NCBI GenBank assembly: GCA_001781125.1
Contig: MFKT01000029.1
Location: forward strand, 4,040 to 68,039
Direction: 5' to 3'
Length of the DNA stretch: 64,000 bases
From: Candidatus Kaiserbacteria bacterium RIFCSPHIGHO2_01_FULL_53_29
GTDB taxonomy: Bacteria; Patescibacteriota; Minisyncoccia; Phycocordibacterales; UBA2100
The notes beneath the pieces are model-generated. The model was not told the DNA's origin. It made no database searches and saw only the letters and a list, made by a program, of their open reading frames with translations. Below, piece after piece: positions 2,183 through 63,902 of this stretch (the stretch's first letter is position 1; the number at the start of each line of letters is the position of its first letter). Both the position numbers and the translations under genes were made by a program.

Positions 2183-3622
2183 TTATCCTTTCCGGGGGAA
2201 AAGATTCTCCGGTTTTTTGTTGTCGCGAATACAGTCCTTGATCTTTTCACTCGTCGTTGGCATAAAGGGTTCGAGAAGTTCGGCAATGACTCCTAGCCGG
2301 CTTACTAATGTACCGATAACTTTTATTGCTTTCTCTCGATCACTTGAAATCAACTTGAATGGCTGCTCCTTTTGAATAACTTCATCGGCGAGGGTTACGA
2401 ATTCCCACACGACACTAATAGCACGATTTATATCAAATTGATCGAGGGCCTTATTGTAAGTAACTGACACGAGTTTTTCTCGGGTCACAGGAGTTGTTAC
2501 GTGGTCAGAGGCCATCTTCATAACTCGAGAAACCAGATTTCCAAGACCGTTCGCAAGATCGGCGTTATAGGCTCCCTTGAATTTTTCTATCGTAAAATCG
2601 GAATCCTCAAAGGGGTGGATATGCCGCGCAAGATAGTAGCGAAGCGCATCGACGCCGTACTCATCGACGATTGCGATAGGATCTATCACGTTCCCGACCG
2701 ATTTGGACATCTTTTCACCACCTATCGTAATAAATCCGTGAATGATTATCTGCTTCGTCGGTGGAAGTCCTGCCGACATGAGCATTGCTTGCCACATCGC
2801 CGTCTGCTGGCGTATTTGGTCCTTGCCTGCCATTTGTATAGCATTTGGGGCATTCTTTGTCCCCCAGAATTTTTCGAAGTTCGCTGTGTTTTCAGGCCAT
2901 CCCAAAGTCGAGATGTAATTAATGAGGGCGTCGAACCATACGAACATGACGTGTTCTTGGTCATCGGGTACTGGAACCCCCCACGGCATCTTTGATTTGA
3001 GCCGAGAAATAGAAAAGTCTTCGAGCCCTTCTTCGACGAACCGTTTTATCTCATTGAACCGGAAATCTGGCACAACGAGCGTGGGATTTTTTTGATAGAG
3101 ATCAAGAAGTTTCTCCCGGTACTTCGAGAACTTGAAGAAATAATTTTCTTCCTCTCTGATTTCAATTTCAAGATTCGGGTGGATGGGGCAGCACCCGTCG
3201 ATAAGCTCTGAATCCGTCTTTTCCAGCTCACATCCAACACAGTATTTGGTCTTGTAGAACTTCTTTTCGATATCGCCGTTAGATTTACAGCGCTTCCAGA
3301 ACTCCTGCGCTGCCGCTTTATGATGCGGATCGGTCGTGCGGATAAAATGCAGGCCGGGAGATAAGCCCAGCTTATCTTTCAGGTCGCGGAATTTCGCAGC
3401 GTATTCGTCCACGTACGCCTGTGTGTCCTTCCCCTCCTCCTGCGCCTTGCGATAGATCTTGAGTCCATGCTCGTCGGTACCGGTATTGAAGAAAACATCG
3501 TCACCAAGAAGTGCATGGTAGCGCGCGACGATATCGGCCTGCACGATCTCAAGCGCGAAGCCAATATGCGGATCGGAGTTCACATATGGGAGAGTTGTCG
3601 TTAAATAAAAAGGCTTCCCCAT
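2183..3622 (-). CDS. metG: methionyl-tRNA synthetase (short form, no C-terminal tRNA-binding domain)
   Basis: class I HIGH-like motif (PYVNSDPHIGF) and KMSKS (KMSKSVGN); zinc knuckle CVGC...CCPIH. Confidence 0.9.
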   Translation of the reverse strand: MGKPFYLTTTLPYVNSDPHIGFALEIVQADIVARYHALLGDDVFFNTGTDEHGLKIYRKAQEEGKDTQAYVDEYAAKFRDLKDKLGLSPGLHFIRTTDPHHKAAAQEFWKRCKSNGDIEKKFYKTKYCVGCELEKTDSELIDGCCPIHPNLEIEIREEENYFFKFSKYREKLLDLYQKNPTLVVPDFRFNEIKRFVEEGLEDFSISRLKSKMPWGVPVPDDQEHVMFVWFDALINYISTLGWPENTANFEKFWGTKNAPNAIQMAGKDQIRQQTAMWQAMLMSAGLPPTKQIIIHGFITIGGEKMSKSVGNVIDPIAIVDEYGVDALRYYLARHIHPFEDSDFTIEKFKGAYNADLANGLGNLVSRVMKMASDHVTTPVTREKLVSVTYNKALDQFDINRAISVVWEFVTLADEVIQKEQPFKLISSDREKAIKVIGTLVSRLGVIAELLEPFMPTTSEKIKDCIRDNKKPENLFPRKG

Positions 3623-13829: not shown

Positions 13830-13920
13830 ATTCCATTGGATGGAATGATAATCTACGTCGAATCCTTTGGAAGGATTCGACGTGATTTCCTAAATCCCAT
13901 TGGATGGGATTTAGGAAATC
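13830..13920. repeat. array of three perfect hairpins sharing a TGG loop (stems 7, 8 and 17 bp)
   Basis: ATTCCAT-tgg-ATGGAAT (13830..13846); GAATCCTT-tgg-AAGGATTC (13860..13878); GATTTCCTAAATCCCAT-tgg-ATGGGATTTAGGAAATC (13884..13920), directly 3' of argS. Confidence 0.6.
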
Positions 13921-15577
13921 ACATTCGCTCTGGAGCCGGAATGCCCAAAATCCAGAGACCGTTTTTCAATGTTTTTCGCACCGCATCCACGAGCGCGACT
14001 CTGTGGGCTGCTTCGGGAGTACCATCGAGAATATGTACCTGCGCGTACCAGCTGTTGAACGCGCTCGCGAATTCAAGAAGGTAGTTCGTTAGCAGATGCG
14101 GTTCGTTGTGTGATGATGCATATTCGACCGCTTCCGGGAAGCGGTGCAAAAACCGAGTAAGATCATCCGAGGCTCTATTGCTACCTACCTTAGAGGCGAC
14201 GCCTCTAAGGTTAGCTTGCTCGACGACCGCGCAGGCACGGGCGTGCGCATACTGCAGGTACGGACCAGAATCACCTTCGAGCGAGAGCGCGCGGTCGCGA
14301 TCAAAAATGATGTCTTTCCCCGATGCTTGCTTTAATATCTGATATTTGATCGCCGCTACCGCAACCTGCTGCGCGAGTACCTCGTGATCCTCCGCCCTGC
14401 TTTCCGCCCCCCGAACCTTCGCCGCTTCGGTAAGATCTACGAGCAATGATTCTCCTGTAATAACATTGCCGGTGCGCGAAGACATCTTGCCTTCAGCAAA
14501 ACGCATCATCCCGTGAGAAACATGCTGGATTTTAGGGGCAATATCCGGCAACACATCTTCCATCGCAGCTTTAACGACAGCAAAATAATCAGCCTGCTCG
14601 TGCGCAGTCACGGTAATTGAAGTATCGAAGCCCCAAGTTTCCGCTTTCAACTCGGCAAGCCCAAGATCTTTTGCCTCGTACGTCGGCAGTCCCTTTGATG
14701 TAACGAACACGCGTGTGTGCAACTCCTTCTTCTCACCCTTGTACACAATCGCCCCGTCGCTTTTTTCAAACACTCCCGGATTCTTCTCAACGAGCTTCAG
14801 GCCGCGCGGAGCCGTCTCGCTCTCAAAAAAGTAATGATCGAATTTTGTACCCAACATTTTGTACAACTCCTCAAAATGATCGAGCGATGCTTTCCGGCCT
14901 GCTGCGTAGACGGCATTTATTTCCGCGTCAGACTTGTCGTAGACTTTTGTGTTTATGGCATCTACCTCTGCTTTGGCAGCAATATCGTTTTCATATGCCT
15001 GTGCTCCCGTCGCATAAGCTTTTCCAAGCTGCGCGGCATCATTCGGGTCAACGCCAAGCTTCATTACGCCCCAAATCGCTTTTGCCACATGCGGCCCGAT
15101 GTCACCCTGATAATTCGCACGCCTCACTTCCGCGCCGGAGAATTGCAAAAGCCGCGAGATGGATTCTCCTATCGCATTGCTCATCAAATGGCCGATGTGG
15201 AATTCCTTGAATGGGTTGGGGTCGGTGTACTCAACCATTATTTTCTTCCTCGCGAGATTTTTGTTAGCCCCCCACATATCCTCCGTACGCGCTTCCTCTA
15301 CCGCCTCGGCGAGCGCAGCGGATGCGAGATAAAAATTGATGAAGCCCGGCCCAGCGATCTCAATTTTCGCAATACCTTTAATGTCTCCAAGTGCGGCAAC
15401 GATTTTCTCCGCAAGCATTTTGGGCGCAACACCCGCTTGCTTCGTATACTGCAGTGCAACGCCGGAAGAATAATCTCCATTTTTCAACTCTGCCGGATGT
15501 TCGAGAGAAACATTTACACCATAAACACTCGCCCTCGCGAGTGCTTCCGAAATAGCCTTTTTTAGAGTCTCTGGCAT
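13919..15577 (-). CDS. argS: arginyl-tRNA synthetase
   Basis: class I HIGH (FKEFHIGH), C-terminal DALR anticodon-binding domain ending ...RM. Confidence 0.9.
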   Translation of the reverse strand: MPETLKKAISEALARASVYGVNVSLEHPAELKNGDYSSGVALQYTKQAGVAPKMLAEKIVAALGDIKGIAKIEIAGPGFINFYLASAALAEAVEEARTEDMWGANKNLARKKIMVEYTDPNPFKEFHIGHLMSNAIGESISRLLQFSGAEVRRANYQGDIGPHVAKAIWGVMKLGVDPNDAAQLGKAYATGAQAYENDIAAKAEVDAINTKVYDKSDAEINAVYAAGRKASLDHFEELYKMLGTKFDHYFFESETAPRGLKLVEKNPGVFEKSDGAIVYKGEKKELHTRVFVTSKGLPTYEAKDLGLAELKAETWGFDTSITVTAHEQADYFAVVKAAMEDVLPDIAPKIQHVSHGMMRFAEGKMSSRTGNVITGESLLVDLTEAAKVRGAESRAEDHEVLAQQVAVAAIKYQILKQASGKDIIFDRDRALSLEGDSGPYLQYAHARACAVVEQANLRGVASKVGSNRASDDLTRFLHRFPEAVEYASSHNEPHLLTNYLLEFASAFNSWYAQVHILDGTPEAAHRVALVDAVRKTLKNGLWILGIPAPERM

Positions 15578-17016: not shown

Positions 17017-17826
17017 CTACCGTATCTCGTACGTTACCGATACATTCGATGTGATCTTGTTCTGACCGACAGGAATTTCGGGAGATGGTGCGGATGCGGA
17101 ATCTGCCATGCCGGCACTCATCGCTTTGGCATAGTAGATCGGCTCACCGCCTCCGCCCTCGCTGAATCCGACGACACGCACGAGCGAGACGCCAAGCTGA
17201 CCAGCCAGAGCCTCGGCTTTGGCGCGCGCATCATCTATCGCCTTGCCGCGTGCCTGCGCTTCGAGCCCCTTCTGGTCATCGATCGTAAATGAAAGTCCCG
17301 AGACCGATGTCGCGCCCTTTGAGCCGACGCCCGCGAGTAGATCGCCTGCTTTTTTCGTATCGCGCACTTTCACGGTCAATGTTTGCGAGACCTGAAAACC
17401 GCGTAGTGTTTGTTTGCCGGGTGGGCAATAACCCTGTGTGCAGACCGTGTTGGTGTAGTCGTATTGCGGGTAGACATTGTAATCGGTGGTCTGAATATCT
17501 TTCTCATCAATGCCCTGCGATTTGAGATAGGCGATGATGTCATTGCCTTTCTTCGTCGCCACATCCTGCGCAGCTTTCACATCTTTCGCTTCTTCCTGAA
17601 TAGTCACCGAAAAAGTGGCCGTATCAGGGACCGCAAAGACCTCGCCGTCGCCGGAAACGCTGATCGTATTGGTCGCGGTAACACCTGAGCCGATAAAGCG
17701 GTATTCCTTCAGAGCAGAGATAGTAAGGATAAAGAGAAAAACCCCGAGCATACTAAGCGCGAACATCCCCGCGATCTGCATCCTCTGCGGCGGCACGATG
17801 TGGATCTCTTTCTTTTCAATATCCAT
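17017..17826 (-). CDS. SIMPL/DUF541 domain secreted protein
   Basis: N-terminal TM/signal anchor; DUF541-like pattern (GFQVSQTLTVKVRD...LAGQLGVSLVRVV). Confidence 0.65.
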   Translation of the reverse strand: MDIEKKEIHIVPPQRMQIAGMFALSMLGVFLFILTISALKEYRFIGSGVTATNTISVSGDGEVFAVPDTATFSVTIQEEAKDVKAAQDVATKKGNDIIAYLKSQGIDEKDIQTTDYNVYPQYDYTNTVCTQGYCPPGKQTLRGFQVSQTLTVKVRDTKKAGDLLAGVGSKGATSVSGLSFTIDDQKGLEAQARGKAIDDARAKAEALAGQLGVSLVRVVGFSEGGGGEPIYYAKAMSAGMADSASAPSPEIPVGQNKITSNVSVTYEIR

Positions 17827-17891
17827 GGCAAATAGTTAGTAGTTAGTAGTAATTAGTTAGTAGACCAGTAGACGGATTGTACTATGAAAAC

Positions 17892-20709: not shown

Positions 20710-20744
20710 ACAGGTTTGCGGCCTGAGAACTCGCACAACAAAAA

Positions 20745-20782
20745 AGCCCGTCCGGTTTCTTCAACCGGACGGGCCTTCGTTT
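20745..20782 (+). terminator. rho-independent terminator
   Basis: GCCCGTCCGGTT-tcttc-AACCGGACGGGC 12 bp stem followed by CTTCGTTTTG. Confidence 0.65.
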
Positions 20783-20938
20783 TGAGCCCGAAGATACCGC
20801 GCTTGACATGATGGCTAGAAAATGCCACTATTTTTTCACTTTCGTCCCGGCGCATCCCCGTAGGATGTGGAAAATATCTGGAGGAAGGTAGTTCTTTCAG
20901 ATTCCGGTTCAATGCTACCCAACTGAAGGAGTTCCTCG

Positions 20939-37537: not shown

Positions 37538-37572
37538 TAGCTACTAGCCACTAGGGTTTAGCCACTAGTGAA
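37538..37572. repeat. left arm of imperfect inverted repeat (TAGCCACTAG x2)
   Basis: tagctactagccactagggtttagccactagtgaa; same arm recurs at 50719..50750. Confidence 0.7.
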
Positions 37573-37910
37573 GAGAGTAATTTGTTCAGCATTCGCATCG
37601 TCTCATTCAATAGACCAGCCGTTTTCGAGACTTCAACGCGGCTTACAAATTGTAACTTCTCGGCAAGTATTAGATGGGTCTCCAATTCCGCACCGGAACC
37701 GAACGCTACCCTTAGAAATTGCACATACTCTGCACGATGCTTGCGTGCAAAACCTTCGGCAATGTTTGCGGGAATCGAGACCGCAGCTCGCCGCATCTGA
37801 CTTATAAGTCCGAACATTTCTTCTTTTGGGAATTTTCGCGTGAGTCGATACACTTCAGCAACAAGTTCTACGCCACGTTGCCATACAATTAAATCTTGGT
37901 ATGACTGCAT
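37551..37910 (-). CDS. four-helix-bundle protein of the 23S rRNA intervening-sequence protein family (PF05635/TIGR02436-like)
   Basis: MQSYQDLIVWQRGVELVAEVYRLTRKFPKEE...IAEGFARK...AFGSGAELETHLILA signature; C-terminus LVAKP-stop encoded by the left repeat arm. Confidence 0.8.
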   Translation of the reverse strand: MQSYQDLIVWQRGVELVAEVYRLTRKFPKEEMFGLISQMRRAAVSIPANIAEGFARKHRAEYVQFLRVAFGSGAELETHLILAEKLQFVSRVEVSKTAGLLNETMRMLNKLLSSLVAKP

Positions 37911-37916
37911 TTTCCA

Positions 37917-37948
37917 GTCGCTAGTGGCTATTGGCTAGTTACTACCAC
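37917..37948. repeat. right arm of imperfect inverted repeat (CGCTAGTGGCTATTGGCTAG)
   Basis: approximate reverse complement of left arm; recurs at 50765..50791; overlaps stop of giant gene A. Confidence 0.7.
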
Positions 37949-40585
37949 GGTTGCATCTTTCGTCCCGCCTGCGAGCGTCTGGCAGTGCAGGAGGAATGTC
38001 GCCTGCGAGAAAACCGGCGACGTGACAGCCGTGCCGCTCACGCTTGTGTTGTAGGAGTTGGCCGCGGTGAAATCCGCCTGATCGGGGCTCGAGATGACAC
38101 ATGATTGCATGCCGGTCGTGACCCAGCCCAAAAGCGCGGTCTTGCCCGAGGCAACGGTCTTGGGGTTGGCGACAAGGATAGTAGAAGGTTTGTTGACTTG
38201 GACGGAGCACTGCGCGCCTGCGGTACGTCCCTGGTCGGTGCAGGTGAGAGCGTAGGTGGCGGTGTTGGCTCCTGCGGGAGGACTACCTATCGTTGTGCTT
38301 GCCACACCTGATTGCGCGCCTGCGGTATCGAAGCCCGAACCCTTGCTCGTGCCTACAGAGCAGGAATACGCGAAGGCTACCATCATGCCGACATCGGCGA
38401 GCTGGGGCTGGCAGGATAATTCGGCCCTGAGCGGAACGAGTGGCGGGGTAGGTGGGGTGGAAGTCGCCGTGCCGGAAGTTACGGTGATGGTTATACTACT
38501 GATAACGTTGCCGTTGGAGGTGAGTTGCACTTGGTACGGGCCGGCAGCTGCGTAGGTATGCGTCTTCGTAAGATTGGCGGGAGGGCAGGTAGCAGCGCCG
38601 CATCCCGAGCCCACGAAATTGGTGCCGTCACCAAAATCAATCGTTGATGGGACCGGTACCATGCCGGTAAAGGTGACCGTAAGGGGTGCGGGACCGGAGG
38701 TTGGATTAGCAGTGAAGTTCGTGTTGGTCGGATTCGGAACGCACTGCCAATTGGTGACGCACTGACCATTCATGACCGGCTGCCACTGTCCGACAGAGCA
38801 GTTTGCAGCAGGTGGAGTCTGCTGCAACTGGAGTTGGCATTGATTGCCGGTGGAGGGCGTGCATTGCTGTGGCTGTTGGGGCGGTGCCGTGATTTGCTGC
38901 TGTTGAACTGGAGCCTGCGGCGCGTACCCCTGCTGCGCGTAGTACTGATTGAGCTGTTGTTGATATTGCTGCTGCTGTTGTTGTTGCTGCTGCTGGTATT
39001 GATACTGCTGCAGTTGGAAATTATATTGTTGCAGCTGCTGCTGGTATTGCTGCTGCCATTGCGCATACGCCTGTGGATCGCTCGGACATTGTTGCGGGGG
39101 CGGAAGAGGCTGCGGGGGCGGTGGTTGATTCAACCCGAGCGCTTTGCCGATCGAGTTCATCATCGAACTCATCGGATTGCCGCCACCGCTACTCGCCGGA
39201 GGACGCGGTGGTTGCTGCTGTTGCTGCGGTTGTTGGAAGGTGCTGTTTATCCTGCAGTCCGGAGGATTGCCACCGTTTGAACATACGGACTGTATCTTAC
39301 AGCCGTTGGCGGGATCGCCGCCGTTCGCGCATTGTTTGGGTGGCTCATTACCCGGCTTGCAGGGAGGCGCGGTACGATCCCTACATATTGTTCCGGGTGG
39401 CGCTTCAGATGACCCCTTTGTGCAGAGGCCAGATGCATCGCATTTGAATCCCAGACTTTCAATATATTTGCGTTCTGCTTCGTTGGCAGGTCTTGCCTCC
39501 CATTTATTATCTTCTATTCGAGAAATGTCTGTCTTGGTTGTCTCCGATGTTATACCACCCGACACCACTGGGCGTTCCGGAGGAGTAAGTGGTGTCGGGC
39601 TCGTGCACCACTCTGGAGGTGAATCCCTCTTACATGCATCAGCAATCGCAGTGTCGACATCTTTAGAATCCTTGTCCGCGTCCGGATCGGGACTGTACGC
39701 GGCGATTTCTTTGATTTTTACCCCATCGGGGGCCTTAAGCGTGCCGTCTGAATCCACAAGCATTTCATTCGTTGAATTCGTAGGGTCCTTACCGAATGCA
39801 CTATTAATGATATCTTGCTGAGTTTGATCGATGCCACAACCCACGAGGCATGAGGGTTCCCACTTGCCCGTCAAGAAATTTTTTCGCACAGTAAAACCAT
39901 CGCTCGACAATTTATCTACGACCAGTGCCTTGTTTATTCCTTTCGAAATGATAGGGACACATCTCATAACCGAACTTATGGGTGAATATGAAGTTGTTGT
40001 GTCAACGCACGCAGTCGTTTTACACGTACCTGGCGATACCTTCGGATTCGGTTCAGCTTTGATCTTAAGGGTGCCGTCTGGCTTAACAGTGACAGTGGCG
40101 GATTTCCCAACGCATTTGAAATTGCCCGGTTTTGCCGGATCGGGGGCAGCAGCAACACAGTCATCGGAGTTGGGGTCCGTTGGTTTAGCAGCTACCTTCG
40201 TCGTAGCTGCAGTTTTTGCTGTAGCAATCGCAATCCCACATTTATTCAAGATTTCCTCATCGACTTTCGCTTTGGCATCCGCTTCAGCTTTCGCTGTAGC
40301 TTCCGCATCAGCCTTTGCTTTGGCATCTGGCGGAGGAGCTGTGGCGGTAGCTGCTGGTGTCGCTGCGGGAGCTGGAAGCAGGTAGGGGACACCACCAGTC
40401 GACGGCATCGCTTGCGTTCTTGGGGGGGGGATGTCTGCGGCAAGAATGGCTCCGGCAGCCTGCTGCGGTTGATTGCCCGTTGGCATAGGAGTAAAAGATT
40501 GGAGCGCTATCGCCGTGACCGCGAGGGCGGCGAGCAGACCTATCACGGGCAAAACAGCAAAACCCCGGGACGCGGATCGGAACAT
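37928..40585 (-). CDS. giant secreted surface protein A (885 aa): A/K-rich, Cys-containing modules, Q/P-rich low complexity, PKD domain
   Basis: signal peptide; PKD signature FTANPTSGPAPLTVTFTG...DFGDGT...HTY; C-terminal 250 aa near-identical to giant B. Confidence 0.7.
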   Translation of the reverse strand: MFRSASRGFAVLPVIGLLAALAVTAIALQSFTPMPTGNQPQQAAGAILAADIPPPRTQAMPSTGGVPYLLPAPAATPAATATAPPPDAKAKADAEATAKAEADAKAKVDEEILNKCGIAIATAKTAATTKVAAKPTDPNSDDCVAAAPDPAKPGNFKCVGKSATVTVKPDGTLKIKAEPNPKVSPGTCKTTACVDTTTSYSPISSVMRCVPIISKGINKALVVDKLSSDGFTVRKNFLTGKWEPSCLVGCGIDQTQQDIINSAFGKDPTNSTNEMLVDSDGTLKAPDGVKIKEIAAYSPDPDADKDSKDVDTAIADACKRDSPPEWCTSPTPLTPPERPVVSGGITSETTKTDISRIEDNKWEARPANEAERKYIESLGFKCDASGLCTKGSSEAPPGTICRDRTAPPCKPGNEPPKQCANGGDPANGCKIQSVCSNGGNPPDCRINSTFQQPQQQQQPPRPPASSGGGNPMSSMMNSIGKALGLNQPPPPQPLPPPQQCPSDPQAYAQWQQQYQQQLQQYNFQLQQYQYQQQQQQQQQQYQQQLNQYYAQQGYAPQAPVQQQQITAPPQQPQQCTPSTGNQCQLQLQQTPPAANCSVGQWQPVMNGQCVTNWQCVPNPTNTNFTANPTSGPAPLTVTFTGMVPVPSTIDFGDGTNFVGSGCGAATCPPANLTKTHTYAAAGPYQVQLTSNGNVISSITITVTSGTATSTPPTPPLVPLRAELSCQPQLADVGMMVAFAYSCSVGTSKGSGFDTAGAQSGVASTTIGSPPAGANTATYALTCTDQGRTAGAQCSVQVNKPSTILVANPKTVASGKTALLGWVTTGMQSCVISSPDQADFTAANSYNTSVSGTAVTSPVFSQATFLLHCQTLAGGTKDATVVVTSQ

Positions 40586-41483: not shown

Positions 41484-44400
41484 TTACGGCATCACGGTAA
41501 TCACTCCCGACATACCGACTCCTCCCGGAGCGCCATGGAAGCGACAGTAATACGGGTAGGTGCCCGCAGTCGTGAAGGTCCGCGAGAAATTTGCCCCCGG
41601 AGAAAGGCCGGTATCGAAACTTCCGCCATCGGCCGTCACGGTATGTTGCATCGCGCCCGTATTGGTCCATGTCACCGTACTCCCTTTTGCGATAGTTATT
41701 GTGCGGGGTGAAAAGGAGTCGTCCGCCGCGGAGATATTGATGAGGGCCGGACTTGAGCTCGTGTTGGATGTGCTCGATGTGGTTGGCGTGGATGATGTGC
41801 TCCCCGCCCCTGCCGTACCCGTGCTTGCACCAAGCGTGACCGTCACACTCGCGCGCTTGCTCGCTCCCCCCTGCGTCGTGCAATCCAATTGGAACGTCGC
41901 GTTGGATGTGATGGGAGAGGTCGCCGCGGCACCGGTCGTACTTGTGTTGTACGCATTGTCCGCCGTGAAGTCGGCCTGATCGGGGCTCGAGATGACGCAG
42001 GATCGCATGCCGGTCGTGATCCAGCCGAGAAGTGTGGTCTTGCCCGAGGCAACGGTCTTGGGGTTGGCGACGAGGACGATCGAGGATCTGTTGACTTGAA
42101 CGGAGCATTGAGCGCCTGCGGTGCGTCCCTGGTCGGTGCACGTGAGAGCGTAGGTGGCGGTGTTGGCGCCTGCCGGAGGCGCCCCAAGGGTGGCCGTTGC
42201 GGAGCCCGACTGGTCTCCACCCGTATCGAAGCCGGAACCCTTGCTCGTCCCTGTCGAGCAGGAGTACGCAAGAGCGAGAGTCATGCCAACATCAGCGAGC
42301 TGGGGCTGGCATGCGAGATGGGCAGTGAGGGGAATGACCGCGGGAGCGGTGGTGGAAGTTGGGGTGGGATCCGACGTATCCGGAACACATCGCCAATTCG
42401 TGAGACAACTCAAACCTGCGACGGTCGAGCTCGCCGGCTTCCACGAGCCATTCCGGCATTCCGATGCATCGGGTTGGTCGGGTCGTGCGGGACACTGCGC
42501 ATTATTGCGCACGCACTGCCAACTCGTGAGACAACTCGATCCTGCGACGGTCGAGGTCGCCGGTTTCCACGAGCCATTTAGGCATGTCGCGGGATTAGGC
42601 TCCGCCGGCTGCGCGGGGCATTGCGGGGTGGGGTTGGGCACACACTGCCAGGCAGTGATGCACGCGCCATTCATCGTCGGCTTCCATGAACCGACGTTGC
42701 AGCTGGACGCCGGAGGTTGCTGTTGCAATTGCTGCTGACACTGACCGCCCGTCGCGGGCTTACACGGCAAGGGCTGCACGGGCGCCGTTGTTTGTGATGG
42801 TGGCGGAGGCGTCAAGCCCTGTTGTGCGTAATACCGACTCAACTGTTGCTGGTACTGTTGCTGTTGCTGATACTGCTGCAGCTGATAATTGTATTGCTGC
42901 AACTGCTGCTGATATTGCTGCTGTTGTTGGGCGTAAATTTGTGGATCGGTGGAACAAACGGGAGCTTCCGGCTGGGGCGTGAGGCCCTTGGCCAAACCCT
43001 CAAGGAACGATGCCAGTGGATTGCCCGGCGGCTTCTTCTGCGACTGCGGAATCTCCGGCATCTTCGGCGCTCCGCCTCCTCCGCCAGCTCCTTTTCCATC
43101 ACCTCCCGCTCCACCTCCCCCTTTACCAGTTCCGCCTTTTTCGGCTCCGGCTTTTGCGGCTTTTGCGTCCGCTGCATCTTTCGCGGTTTTTGCCTCCTTC
43201 GCAGCTTTTGCGTCTGCCGCGTCTTTTTCTGTTTTTGTTTTGGTGGTATCTGGGGGCTCTTTACCCTCATCTTTGACACAACTCCCGTCCGAAGCACATG
43301 TGTATTCGTTATCCTCAAGATACTTTTTCTGCTCCTCCGAGTCCGCCTTGGCTTTCCATTTACCTTCTTCGTCTCTCGTTGCGATTATGTCGTCAACTGA
43401 TCCTTTTGAACAACTTCCATCGGAGCCGCAAGTGTACCCGCTGGCCTCAAGGTATTGCTTCTGCTCGGCAGATTCAGCGCGGGCCGTCCATTTTCCATTC
43501 CCATCGGAGCGAGCGACAATGTCATCAACCGAACCTTTGGAGCAGGCGCCGCTAGAGCTGCATGTATATCCATTGTCTTCGAGGTACCTCTGTTGCTCTG
43601 TTGTTTCTGCTTGTGCGGTCCAGTTACCATTCCCTTCAGAGTGGGCGACGATATCATCGACGCTTACAGGTTCTGACGGCGCGACCGAGGGTTCGATGGC
43701 AGCTGGCATATCTGTCGCACGAAGCCCGGGATCCCGCACTCCTGCGACGTCCCGTCCCCAAAAACTATCCCGCCAGTTAGAGTCAGACGCTCCAGTACAC
43801 GAGCCTCCCGACAAGCATGGATACTGGTTCTCCATTGCATACAGATCATTTTTAATCTGCCCAAGTACAGCATCTCTTTCGGGGTTTGGCGCTCCCCCAC
43901 CATTCATGAAGCCACGCTGATCTGAGAGCATTTTTTCTCGAAAAACAAGTTCGTTATATTTGCCGACATCGCTCACGGTGGGATTTTGCGCAAGCGCTGC
44001 AGAATACGCGGCGTTGATATCCTCTCCGTAGTTGGCATGCAGCGTTTGCTTTTCCGAATCTGAAAGTCCGGTATACCAATTTAAACCTCTGTCGGGCGAC
44101 CCTGCGGAGTATCCTTGGAGCTCTGAACCGCTCTGCGCGTCCCATGTGGCAGCGGGAAGCTGTTGCCCAGGCAGAGGATTTTCCTGTATCGTGGCGGATC
44201 GATCAGGAAAGGAACCTTCGGCCGGCGGAGGGGAATTAAAATCAAACGCTGGAGCTTGTGTCATGGCTCCCGGCAAATTCTGTGCCCATGTATCGAAGGT
44301 CGTTGCCGCGGCGACACCTGGCTCGAGAGCGGCAGGCGGTGGGTCGGCCGCAGACGAGAGCGGGAATCCGTCGTCGCTACGAGTTGGTGAGATGGGGAGA

Positions 44401-49734: not shown

Positions 49735-50718
49735 ATGATAAAGAGAGTCCTCATCATCTCCCTTGTGTTCTTCATCATCGGGCTCATCCTCTTTTGGTTG
49801 ATAAGCGGAGGTCTAAGTGCTTCTGCGCGCACCGCGCGCACGCTCGGCAATCCGATCGATTATATTTTCGGCAGTGGCACCTCGCCCGGCATATCATTCC
49901 GGCTGCCGTGGCAGCCAGCATCTCTCCCTCAAGGACCGGATATTTCAGGTGATGCGGAAGTCGACGCGCAAAACGATGCTCCCGGAAATGAAGAACGAGG
50001 ATCAAATGCGAGCCCGCAGCCTTCCGAGCTCCGCACATTCGGCAATCCCTCACCCTCTGCGGGTAAGATCACGCTCACGGACAATTCGGCGACCGAGAGC
50101 GATGCTACAGCGGAATATATCAAGATCGAGGCATCCGGAAGTAACACCGCGCCGATCGCTATCACGAATTGGTCCCTGCAAAGTGCGATTTCCGGACTTC
50201 GGACATACATTCCGCAAGGCGCGCCACTGTTCGTGATGGGCGTCATCAACAACGTGGAGAAGGTATATCTTGAGCCGGGAGCCTCTGCGATCGTCACCAC
50301 GAGCGCCTCCCCCGTCGGAGTCTCATTCCGCGAAAATATCTGCAGCGGCTACCTCGGCGAACTGCAAACATTCACTCCGGAGATAGGAAATGCGTGCCCC
50401 CACGCCTCAGAGACCCTCGCGAAGAATCCGCAGAACCTGCAGACCTATAGTGGCGCCTGCTTCGACTATCTGGATACTCTTCCTTCGTGCCACTTCCCTA
50501 CCGATCTTCCTTCAGAACTCTCGTCGACGTGCCGATCATTCATTGCAAACACGATGTCGTACAACGGCTGTGTAAATACCTCTCGCAACGATCCAACATT
50601 CGCACTCCACTCGTGGCGACTCTTTCTCAACATGCGCACCGAACTCTGGTACAACACGCACGATGTGATCCGGCTCTTGGACGACCAGGGGCGGACCGTG
50701 GACGTACTCACATATTAG
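49735..50718 (+). CDS. hypothetical secreted protein with lamin-tail-like (LTD) region
   Basis: signal anchor; EYIKIEASGSNTAPIAITNWSL LTD-like strand pattern. Confidence 0.45.
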   Translation: MIKRVLIISLVFFIIGLILFWLISGGLSASARTARTLGNPIDYIFGSGTSPGISFRLPWQPASLPQGPDISGDAEVDAQNDAPGNEERGSNASPQPSELRTFGNPSPSAGKITLTDNSATESDATAEYIKIEASGSNTAPIAITNWSLQSAISGLRTYIPQGAPLFVMGVINNVEKVYLEPGASAIVTTSASPVGVSFRENICSGYLGELQTFTPEIGNACPHASETLAKNPQNLQTYSGACFDYLDTLPSCHFPTDLPSELSSTCRSFIANTMSYNGCVNTSRNDPTFALHSWRLFLNMRTELWYNTHDVIRLLDDQGRTVDVLTY

Positions 50719-50791
50719 TGATTAGCCACTAGGGTTTAGCCACTAGTGAATCCTGAATTCATCTAATCGCTAGTGGCTATTGGCTAACATC
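50719..50791. repeat. second, cargo-free copy of the 37538/37917 inverted-repeat hairpin
   Basis: tgattagccactagggtttagccactagtgaa - 14 nt - aatcgctagtggctattggctaacatc; sits at convergent gene ends. Confidence 0.7.
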
Positions 50792-51273
50792 TGAAACAAT
50801 ACAATTCCGGCTGCGACGGAAACATTCAGTGATTCTTTTTTGCCGTGCATCGGTATTTCGATAAGGACATCGCATTTCGCACGCAACTCATGGGAGAGTC
50901 CGCGCACTTCATTACCGAAAATAAAAAGTGTCGGGGCTTTGACCCTGTATTTCCGATAGTCGCGAGATCGGCGATCCTGCTCAACGCCAACGATTCCCCA
51001 CTTCTGTTTCTTTCCTCCGGAGGAGGATCCGCCTCCGGCGGATAATTTTGAAATGAGCGGCACGGGCGACTTGAAATATTCCCATGGCAGAGATCTCTCC
51101 GCGCCGAGCGCTGTCTTTGCGATTTCTTTTTGTGGCCGACCGAACCTGTCGATCGGCACCGGCGTATATCCGCAGAGGTAGATCTTCGCAACACCCGCCG
51201 CATCGGCGGTGCGGAATATCGAGCCCACATTATGTGCGCTCCGGATATTGTGCAATAAAATAGCGATAGGCAT
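50770..51273 (-). CDS. SpoU/TrmH family RNA 2'-O-methyltransferase
   Basis: LLHNIRSAHNVGSIFRTADAAGV and IFGNEVRGLS...IPMHG SPOUT motifs; Gly/Ser-rich insert; C-terminus encoded in repeat arm. Confidence 0.8.
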   Translation of the reverse strand: MPIAILLHNIRSAHNVGSIFRTADAAGVAKIYLCGYTPVPIDRFGRPQKEIAKTALGAERSLPWEYFKSPVPLISKLSAGGGSSSGGKKQKWGIVGVEQDRRSRDYRKYRVKAPTLFIFGNEVRGLSHELRAKCDVLIEIPMHGKKESLNVSVAAGIVLFQMLANSH

Positions 51274-51338
51274 ATGAACACCATATGCTCTTGTTGTATT
51301 TGCTACAAGCTGTAAGCTACAAGCTACAAGCTTTATTT

Positions 51339-63401: not shown

Positions 63402-63902
63402 GACGCTTTCACAGCATAAAACCCGATTATGTGATTGCAAACGAGCCTGCCCCGTTAGAAATATACTCTCACAATTTACGACACATCAATTGCCAAGAAG
63501 AAACATTCTCTGCGCAGTGGAAAAACGCTTCCTAATTTCTTTTGGGGTGCTATCGTTCAAACAGGAAGGGCTTGCCCTTCGAAGTTTTAGCGAAGAAGGG
63601 AGGTGCACACTATCGGGCGATGCTTTTGTAAAAAAGTTGCAACCAGGCCCTGAGGATGGCGGCAGCCGTCCCGCCAAGGCGGGAAACCGCCGCGTCCTTG
63701 GAAAAGTTACCATCGCCCGATACTGTGCATCTCTATGAAAGGCTTGCCGATGCCACGGGTGTGGCGGGCAGAGAAAAAGCGCAAACAGCGCTTTCTGACA
63801 GAGAGTATAGCATATTAGAATGAATTGTCAACCCCATTAGAGAGCTCCGAAGTTTGCCTCTAACGGGGCATGGCCACCTCAATTCGATCCATATTGGATC
63901 CA

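Follow-up and report, generated by a model that had tools for sequence, protein, structure and literature searches.

What is a hairpin of seven-nucleotide repeats at the meeting point of two convergent genes, and how is it related to a similar hairpin that encloses a gene elsewhere on the same contig? The question is raised by positions 50715-50794 of the window, by which we mean the whole 64,000-nt stretch of Candidatus Kaiserbacteria bacterium RIFCSPHIGHO2_01_FULL_53_29 analysed here. The initial annotation, made from the sequence alone, described a cargo-free copy of the hairpin at 37538 and took it for the empty-site reference of an element that recombines or inserts at the hairpin loop. 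The cargo-free copy is real; the empty-site interpretation is not supported. The isolated hairpin (hereafter the solo) is probably an ORF-less member of a family of heptad palindromes, the ORF-bearing members of which are PF05635 cassettes resembling rRNA intervening sequences (IVSs). The best reading of the family's character is IVS-like or MITE-like.

Sequence and fold of the solo hairpin

The left arm of the solo (50716..50750, plus strand) consists of five TAG-phased heptads, TAGTGAT TAGCCAC TAGGGTT TAGCCAC TAGTGAA, and its minus strand is the counterpart of the 3' arm of the gene-bearing element (..TTCACTAGTGGCTAAACCCTAG..). Eight nucleotides (50751..50758) lie between this array and the right arm (50759..50786), in which four NNNNCTA heptads on the plus strand (TCATCTA ATCGCTA GTGGCTA TTGGCTA) read TAGCCAA TAGCCAC TAGCGAT TAGATGA on the minus strand. 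As first drawn, with arms at 50719-50750 and 50765-50791, the structure had an unpaired loop of 14 nt (50751-50764, tcctgaattcatct), inside which the mini-palindrome TGAATTCA is found. The left arm was then thought to begin just after the stop codon of the upstream gene; that stop is a TAG in phase with the array, which therefore starts at 50716 and not at 50719. The full predicted stem-loop (50715..50794) comprises a 13-bp inner stem, an asymmetric internal loop and an outer stem of 7 + 6 bp. The minimum free energy (MFE) of the RNA is -29.7 kcal/mol for the plus strand (z -4.57, with 0/200 shuffles equally good) and -29.0 kcal/mol for the minus strand, and folding as DNA gives -14.9 (z -4.2).

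The solo is small and ORF-less with terminal inverted repeats, as in MITEs, and these repeats close it with a long stem, as in IVSs. Both arms are tandem 7-nt arrays of at least two units (five and four, in phase), and the arrays converge on opposite strands, lie close together, are intergenic and sit near an ORF 3' end, as do the heptamer pairs of Xanthomonas. In the output of TRF, period 7 appears at one arm of the sister copy described below (37916-37939), and no array is listed at 50716-50786. The TAGNNNN units place TAG codons of both arms in all three frames and on both strands. Successive TAGs change frame because the unit length of 7 is not a multiple of 3, and stops appear on the opposite strand because units often end in C, making the palindromic CTAG. 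Whichever flank a ribosome enters from, it therefore terminates after no more than about 20 nt.

An assembly artefact is excluded: the hairpin has the same sequence in each of the seven loci read (L001-L006 and the 99%-identical strain variant L240), and the exact TrmH protein encoded beside it is found on 20 contigs. A canonical intrinsic terminator was rejected, as neither strand of the solo has a T-run and the intrinsic-terminator scan makes no call. An integron attC-like site was also set aside, with no integrase context seen and the ORF of the gene-bearing copy bracketed on both sides. There is no Rfam match at E <= 1 in 50600-50900; the Rfam matches in the whole window are tRNAs only, and the solo, flanked by protein-coding genes, is not within an rRNA gene. 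Its loop of 8-14 nt holds no PF05635 ORF, and its arm sequence has no REP-type GT(A/G)G head. Inverted repeats that are not built from heptads also occur in the window: 23-nt arms, 91% complementary, around 88 nt (63600-63733), a perfect 19-nt palindrome with a 3-nt spacer (13882-13922) and a terminator-like 25-nt hairpin (20733-20787).

The flanking genes

The convergent junction, correctly recognised from the start, is formed by a plus-strand gene for a 327-aa protein with a weak match to the Lamin Tail Domain (the LTD-domain gene, 49735..50718) and a minus-strand gene for a 167-aa SpoU/TrmH-family RNA 2'-O-methyltransferase (50770..51273, PF00588). The stop codon of the LTD-domain gene (TAG, 50716-50718) belongs to heptad 1 of the left arm. 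From the other side, TrmH passes two right-arm units and stops on the third in-phase TAG, ending in ..LFQM-LANSH*. Its last codons (about five, L-A-N-S-H) and its stop, which lies inside the right arm, are encoded by the element, in agreement with the initial annotation, where the QMLANSH-stop end had been assigned to this arm. The arms had also been credited with the C-terminal codons of both genes, which is right for TrmH and wrong for its neighbour: the ..LTY* end of the LTD-domain protein is kept in all four species compared, including relatives without the present hairpin. The arm coding sequence therefore goes to TrmH, and the LTD-domain gene gets a stop only.

The 120 TrmH homologues compared (one 99% copy, the others no more than 74% identical) are conserved as far as ..AAGI(I/V)LF and continue with 0-10 unrelated residues. 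None of them ends in LANSH, which is consistent with the proposal that these last residues come from the element.

The TrmH / LTD / Mur-ligase / RuvA synteny is retained in relatives, and the TrmH/LTD junction is variable among them. It is an 88-nt spacer with a T-run stem in L216, and a roughly 20-bp perfect non-heptad hairpin, which also encodes the TrmH tail, in L220. In L217 (TrmH 70% identical) positions 2100-2215 form a heptad hairpin of the same architecture built from different units, of the TAGTACG type (TAGTTCG TAGAACG TAGTACG TAGTGAG ... CTACGTA CTACGAA CTACGTT CTACGTA), and TrmH and the LTD-domain gene both stop on in-phase array TAGs. The hairpin in L217 results either from a separate colonisation of this junction or from turnover at the site.

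Lone arrays also occur in the window. One lies in the divergent spacer between TrmH and a membrane-protein gene (51302-51332, GCTACAA x4.4 on the plus strand). Its sequence on the TrmH sense strand is TTGTAGC TTGTAGC TTACAGC TTGTAGC, with three TAGs in phase, and about 29 nt separate the end of the array from the TrmH ATG. For the 150-aa ORF listed from 51285 a later start is probable; the gene is called at 132 aa in other assemblies. Another array, with no inverted partner, is found at 17833-17867 (TAGTTAG TAGTTAG TAGTAAT TAGTTAG TAGACCA); 6 nt lie between its end and the start codon (ATG, 17826) of a minus-strand gene, 17017-17826. Its unit gives TAG on the plus strand and TAA on the minus strand in all frames, like the 'forward' TAACTGA arrays of Beggiatoaceae.

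A second copy that encloses a gene

The sister copy at 37538-37944 has one arm homologous to the left arm of the solo (37538..37572, plus strand; TAGCTAC TAGCCAC TAGGGTT TAGCCAC TAGTGAA) and one homologous to the right arm (37917..37944, plus strand; GTCGCTA GTGGCTA TTGGCTA GTTACTA). Its cargo is a minus-strand gene (37551..37910) for a 119-aa protein of PF05635 / TIGR02436 (E 1e-37), the protein family of 23S rRNA intervening sequences, a four-helix bundle (4HB) of the Avd-like kind; the protein is without known catalytic function. The 37538..37572 arm encodes, on the minus strand, the last seven codons and the stop of the 4HB ORF (SSLVAKP*), and the 37917..37944 arm gives a ..SQ-stop end to a co-directional 885-aa gene, in a register different from that in TrmH. 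In both the MFE and the centroid structures, the predicted RNA of the whole sister element pairs the arms around the ORF, across 345 nt.

A 300-nt direct repeat (37975-38274 and 41873-42172, 81% identity), with more shared repeats at 38954-39088 and 42843-42956, suggests two large paralogous genes for Q/P-rich surface proteins, separated by about 3.9 kb. The 885-aa gene whose end lies in the 4HB element's arm is the first of the pair.

Pairwise alignment of the two loci, the check proposed in the initial annotation, supports their homology. Positions 50716-50750 match 37538-37572 at 91% over 35 nt, the last (inner) 28 nt being identical (28/28), and 50762-50786 match 37913-37937 at 92% over 25 nt (23/25), the last (outer) 20 being identical. 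The core decamer TAGCCACTAG, allowing at most one mismatch, has 10 occurrences in the window where 1.15 are expected; 9/10 lie at the solo and the 37538 locus, and 0/100 shuffles reach 10. The 20-mer TAGCCAATAGCCACTAGCGA is common only to the window's two copies and is absent from the orthologous elements in relatives. Homology of the solo loop to the 345 nt inside the 37538 copy could not be demonstrated. Neither window copy shows direct repeats at its ends, and the boundaries of both are blurred by variable outer heptads.

In the sister copy, the end of the gene and the arm are one sequence. Among 120 homologues of the 4HB protein (64-83% identical), S(S/T)LVAKP* is the commonest tail. In comparisons of the window with its orthologues, codons 1-112 are saturated (about 60-70 synonymous differences per 77 sites, dN 0.12-0.30), whereas the arm-encoded last seven codons have 0-1 synonymous differences per 6.7 sites. 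The 4HB ORF is thus under purifying selection, and the arm, with near-zero synonymous change against saturation elsewhere, is subject to an additional constraint at the nucleotide level.

4HB homologues with identities of 82%, 76% and 68% occupy the same junction in at least three related species, in the conserved order of large surface protein, 4HB and convergent 156-aa gene, and the number and order of the heptad units vary. The ORF-bearing 37538 copy is therefore old and vertically inherited, and not a recent insertion. The window's own 4HB protein was found in one genomic context only. In another Kaiserbacterium (L222), a 71%-identical 4HB gene with TAGCCAC/TAGGGTT arms is located inside the otherwise conserved rpsP-khpA-trmD operon, giving rpsP-khpA-[4HB]-trmD. 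The 3' arm of the L222 element (2972-3372) ends 12 nt before the trmD start codon, and the expression of trmD must therefore pass through the element. Canonical terminators are found after khpA in L107, L103 and L139, where L222 has the 4HB element.

ORF-less hairpins in metagenomes

Metagenome contigs were scanned for exact matches to TAGCCACTAG-N(5-35)-CTAGTGGCTA, a pattern designed for solos only and with no matched ORF-bearing count. At least 119 loci carry ORF-less hairpins built on the TAGCCACTAG..CTAGTGGCTA core, and most of those listed are clear TAG-heptad hairpins. Among the matches listed, 66 contexts are co-directional, 16 convergent and 8 divergent. The gene 3' ends that face an arm, again among the matches listed, stop inside the array in 58 of 117 cases, 57 of the 58 on an in-phase TAG or TAA and nearly always on TAG. 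The window solo is typical in this use of array stops by host genes.

The spacing between paired arrays is bimodal, either 0-50 nt or, where a 4HB ORF is enclosed, 300-450 nt. Most metagenomic solo loops are unique, and a few loop families recur in different flanks. In L190 (1644-2006), rpmI, encoding ribosomal protein L35, lies between two near-identical TAGCCAC solos with the same loop (TGGAAGACAAAATTATAC). In a gammaproteobacterial MAG (L016, 17459-17602), a CTGAATT/TCAGAAT heptad palindrome is nested in the loop of a TAGGATG/TAGGTGG heptad hairpin.

PF05635 genes and heptad arrays across phyla

PF05635 genes have previously been reported from cas loci and, in CPR bacteria, from rRNA insertions. 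A one-genome-per-species scan with the 4HB protein returned 80 loci from many phyla, and most of the PF05635 ORFs in it lie between inverted arrays of 7-nt (some 8-nt) units, period 7 being commonest and period 8 second. The units are lineage-specific (TAGCCAC, TAGGGTA, TAGACAG, TAGTCAG, GTGAATG, TAGGGCAG, GGGAATA/GGGATTA, GGAGTCA and others), and the two arms of one element remain complementary despite these differences between lineages. The median local score of arm complementarity is 36 for same-element pairs vs 14 for cross-element pairs, and 65% of elements lie above the 95th percentile of the cross-element scores. At least three in-phase TAGs on both sides are present for 16/77 PF05635 ORFs (21%) vs 0/1349 control ORFs. 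If arrays are counted with any stop codon in phase, the figures are 30/77 and 21/1349. Stop codons are absent from many of the heptad arrays that surround PF05635 genes in other phyla, and a stop function is therefore not the universal reason for heptad repeats.

The gene upstream of the 4HB gene points the same way in 50 of 69 cases. A median of about 40 nt separates the upstream stop from the 4HB ATG, and an SD-like motif was seen in only 23 of 75 elements. These figures fit a promoter-less cassette expressed from the host transcript. Mismatches in the arms of ORF-bearing elements show no bias of G.U over A.C (45 vs 53), and among the solos only 7 were usable for this count. Since the bias is absent, nothing yet favours selection for RNA pairing over a DNA-level palindrome.

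PF05635 genes between inverted heptad arrays amount to a quantifiable rule. We found no paper linking the two in the literature searched, in which subscription journals were thinly covered, so that an earlier description is possible.

Origin and possible function of the solo

The reading that we consider probable, an ORF-less member of a family with IVS-like PF05635 cassettes, draws on the homology of the arms, their architecture and all-frame stops, the use of array stops by host genes, the constraint on the arm and the dispersal of both forms. The presence of stops in all frames and on both strands explains why the element is tolerated at the extreme 3' ends of genes, and offers a simple account of its occurrence inside the last codons of essential genes. 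Transcription from either convergent gene would place a stem of roughly 26 bp at the 3' end of the transcript. Such double-stranded RNA could be cut by RNase III, or could block 3' exonucleases and read-through, a role with parallels in ORF-less rRNA intervening sequences and in RNase III-processed miniature inverted-repeat elements.

The solo may have arisen as a miniature copy or through loss of the ORF from a full element, and would then not be a pre-insertion target site. Two candidate traces of such an origin were rejected. The minus-strand solo loop (ATG AAT TCA) compared with the full copy (ATG CAG TCA) had suggested a residual start codon, left by an internal deletion that joined the start to the tail; orientable metagenomic solos show no enrichment of ATG in the sense orientation (4 vs 7), and the local similarity is at chance level. 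A decay series was also sought among array pairs 60-260 nt apart, and a 4HB profile search gave no remnants. Neither result supports a derivation of solos from full copies. Mobility is suggested by the dispersed copies. No transposase was found in a non-exhaustive scan of the window ORFs for Y1 transposases, and no presence/absence polymorphism was seen, the sole near-identical strain variant (L240) having the identical hairpin.

One alternative, which seems rather unlikely to us, is that the PF05635 protein binds heptad hairpins in trans, the solo being an orphan site through which the 37551-37910 protein controls or mobilises loci. The solo and the 4HB copy of the same genome have specific arm units in common, the arm is constrained at the nucleotide level across species while synonymous sites are saturated, and the dN of 0.12-0.30 indicates purifying selection on the ORF. 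The family is also homologous to Avd, an accessory protein that binds nucleic acids and RT in diversity-generating retroelements (DGRs; PMC10053308). However, the units within one arm are heterogeneous (TAGCCAC, TAGGGTT, TAGCGAC, TAGTGAA), the 4HB genes on contigs with TAGCCAC solos can have arms of quite another kind, and the biochemistry of PF05635 proteins is known from DGRs only.

The empty-site interpretation would make heptad hairpins host structures at gene ends, serving as landing pads for 4HB cassettes that insert into their loops. The homology of the two window copies does end at the arms, the TrmH/LTD junction in relatives always has some hairpin, and ORF-less hairpins appear commoner than ORF-bearing ones (at least 119 with one core, in a solo-only scan). 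Insertion at the loop may occur as a general process, given the one nested heptad hairpin (L016), and no direct evidence of it was found at the solo. We nevertheless regard this explanation as unlikely. The last seven codons and stop of the 4HB gene belong to the constrained arm and are conserved with it, arms and ORF occur together at the unrelated L222 locus, and the orthology of the 37538 copy in at least three related species makes a recent insertion unnecessary. The complementary arm units that PF05635 genes of other phyla have of their own are also easier to understand if arms and ORF form one unit.

It is similarly improbable that the solo is a bidirectional terminator or insulator evolved by the host between TrmH and the LTD-domain gene, with heptads produced by replication slippage of the native stops and a likeness to 37538 due to convergence or gene conversion and not to a dispersed element. 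This explanation would account for a stable structure at the junction in 4/4 species (the T-run stem of L216, the perfect stem of L220 and the heptad hairpins of L217 and the window) and for elements at positions occupied in relatives by canonical terminators, such as the one downstream of khpA. Heptamers are also the commonest long simple-sequence repeats in bacteria (cited in PMC4679880). It is opposed by the 28 identical nucleotides, which include a non-repetitive order of units, by the same core at more than 100 unrelated loci, by the missing T-run and by near-identical solos at two sites of one contig (L190). A chance palindrome with a chance likeness to 37538 has the short length of the feature in its favour and nothing more, and is refuted by the 28-nt exact repeat, unexpected in 64 kb, and by shuffles of which none in 200 folds equally and none in 100 gives 10 motif hits.

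Wider significance

The generalisation to genes bracketed by heptad arrays is of more interest than the single hairpin, which is itself a small gene-junction repeat. Avd-like four-helix-bundle relatives are pentameric in solved structures. Tentatively, and with considerable doubt, PF05635 proteins and heptad palindromes might form one two-part system across bacteria, in which the protein acts in trans on hairpins of its cognate heptad and solos are non-autonomous partners. If so, rRNA IVSs, the heptamers of Xanthomonas, Nostoc and Beggiatoa (STRR, GGGAATC, TAACTGA) and the large paralogue families annotated as 'four helix bundle protein', so far described separately, would be one kind of element. 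The bracketing of PF05635 genes itself connects rRNA IVSs, a puzzle since the 1990s as to where they come from and what their ORF does, with heptamer repeats that lack an explanation in several phyla. For annotation, the element is a warning that C-terminal residues and stops of many CPR genes are repeat-derived.

Comparison with known elements

Neisseria Correia elements, ERIC and REP/BIME sequences are small, ORF-less and dispersed, with terminal inverted repeats that fold in mRNA. Elements of the Correia, ERIC and REP type occur at gene 3' ends and can supply stops, some are RNase III substrates, and only their ends are common with a larger partner. REP/BIME sequences are associated with RAYT (TnpA-REP) and have a conserved 5' GT(A/G)G head. 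The solo is similarly small and dispersed and shares its ends with a larger partner, the 37538 copy, whose protein is a 119-aa four-helix bundle. No transposase partner, RAYT or target-site duplication was found for it (the Y1 scan of window ORFs being non-exhaustive). Its arms differ from classical MITE or REP ends in being internally periodic.

TAACTGA direct repeats with stops in all three frames have been described in Beggiatoaceae, cyanobacteria and Bacteroidetes (MacGregor, 2015; PMC4679880). They overlap the ends of upstream ORFs and finish a few nucleotides short of the following start codon, which usually lacks a Shine-Dalgarno sequence (PMC4679880). The window has all-frame-stop heptamers too, and its lone arrays at 17833-17867 and 51302-51332 are similar to these repeats. 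TAACTGA arrays are nearly all direct, with one inverted case, and no associated gene family was reported (PMC4679880), whereas the window hairpin is an inverted pair and its family has an associated gene.

Inverted heptamer pairs are known from Xanthomonas ((GGGAATC)n) and Nostoc (GGGGA(C/T)T) (Rehm et al., 2015; PMC4692102). Xanthomonas genomes have 70-75 convergent pairs each, capable of forming stem-loops and intergenic near the 3' end of the upstream ORF; their contexts are mostly co-directional, about 16% convergent and about 8% divergent (PMC4692102). Rehm et al. took these heptamers to form G-quadruplexes, and PF05635, S23p and IVS go unmentioned in their paper (PMC4692102). The window units differ in being TAG-phased and not G-rich. 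The inverted 7-nt pairs are alike, as is the context split (66/16/8 among the matches listed here), and G-rich units of such type flank PF05635 ORFs in L017, L019, L027, L032 and L048.

In the 23S rRNA IVSs of Coxiella burnetii and Leptospira, an S23p/PF05635 ORF lies within a stem of terminal inverted repeats that is cut by RNase III; the Coxiella stem is 28 bp long, the ORF is preceded by a poor Shine-Dalgarno sequence, and the origin of the IVS is unexplained (PMC4990558). Unlike these IVSs, the window element lies between protein-coding genes and not in an rRNA gene, and its arms are phased TAG heptads that double as stops of neighbouring genes. Excision by RNase III has been shown for IVSs and would, by analogy, be expected of the window element. 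The sister copy has the same cargo family, likewise enclosed by inverted repeats and with a poor Shine-Dalgarno sequence before the ORF.
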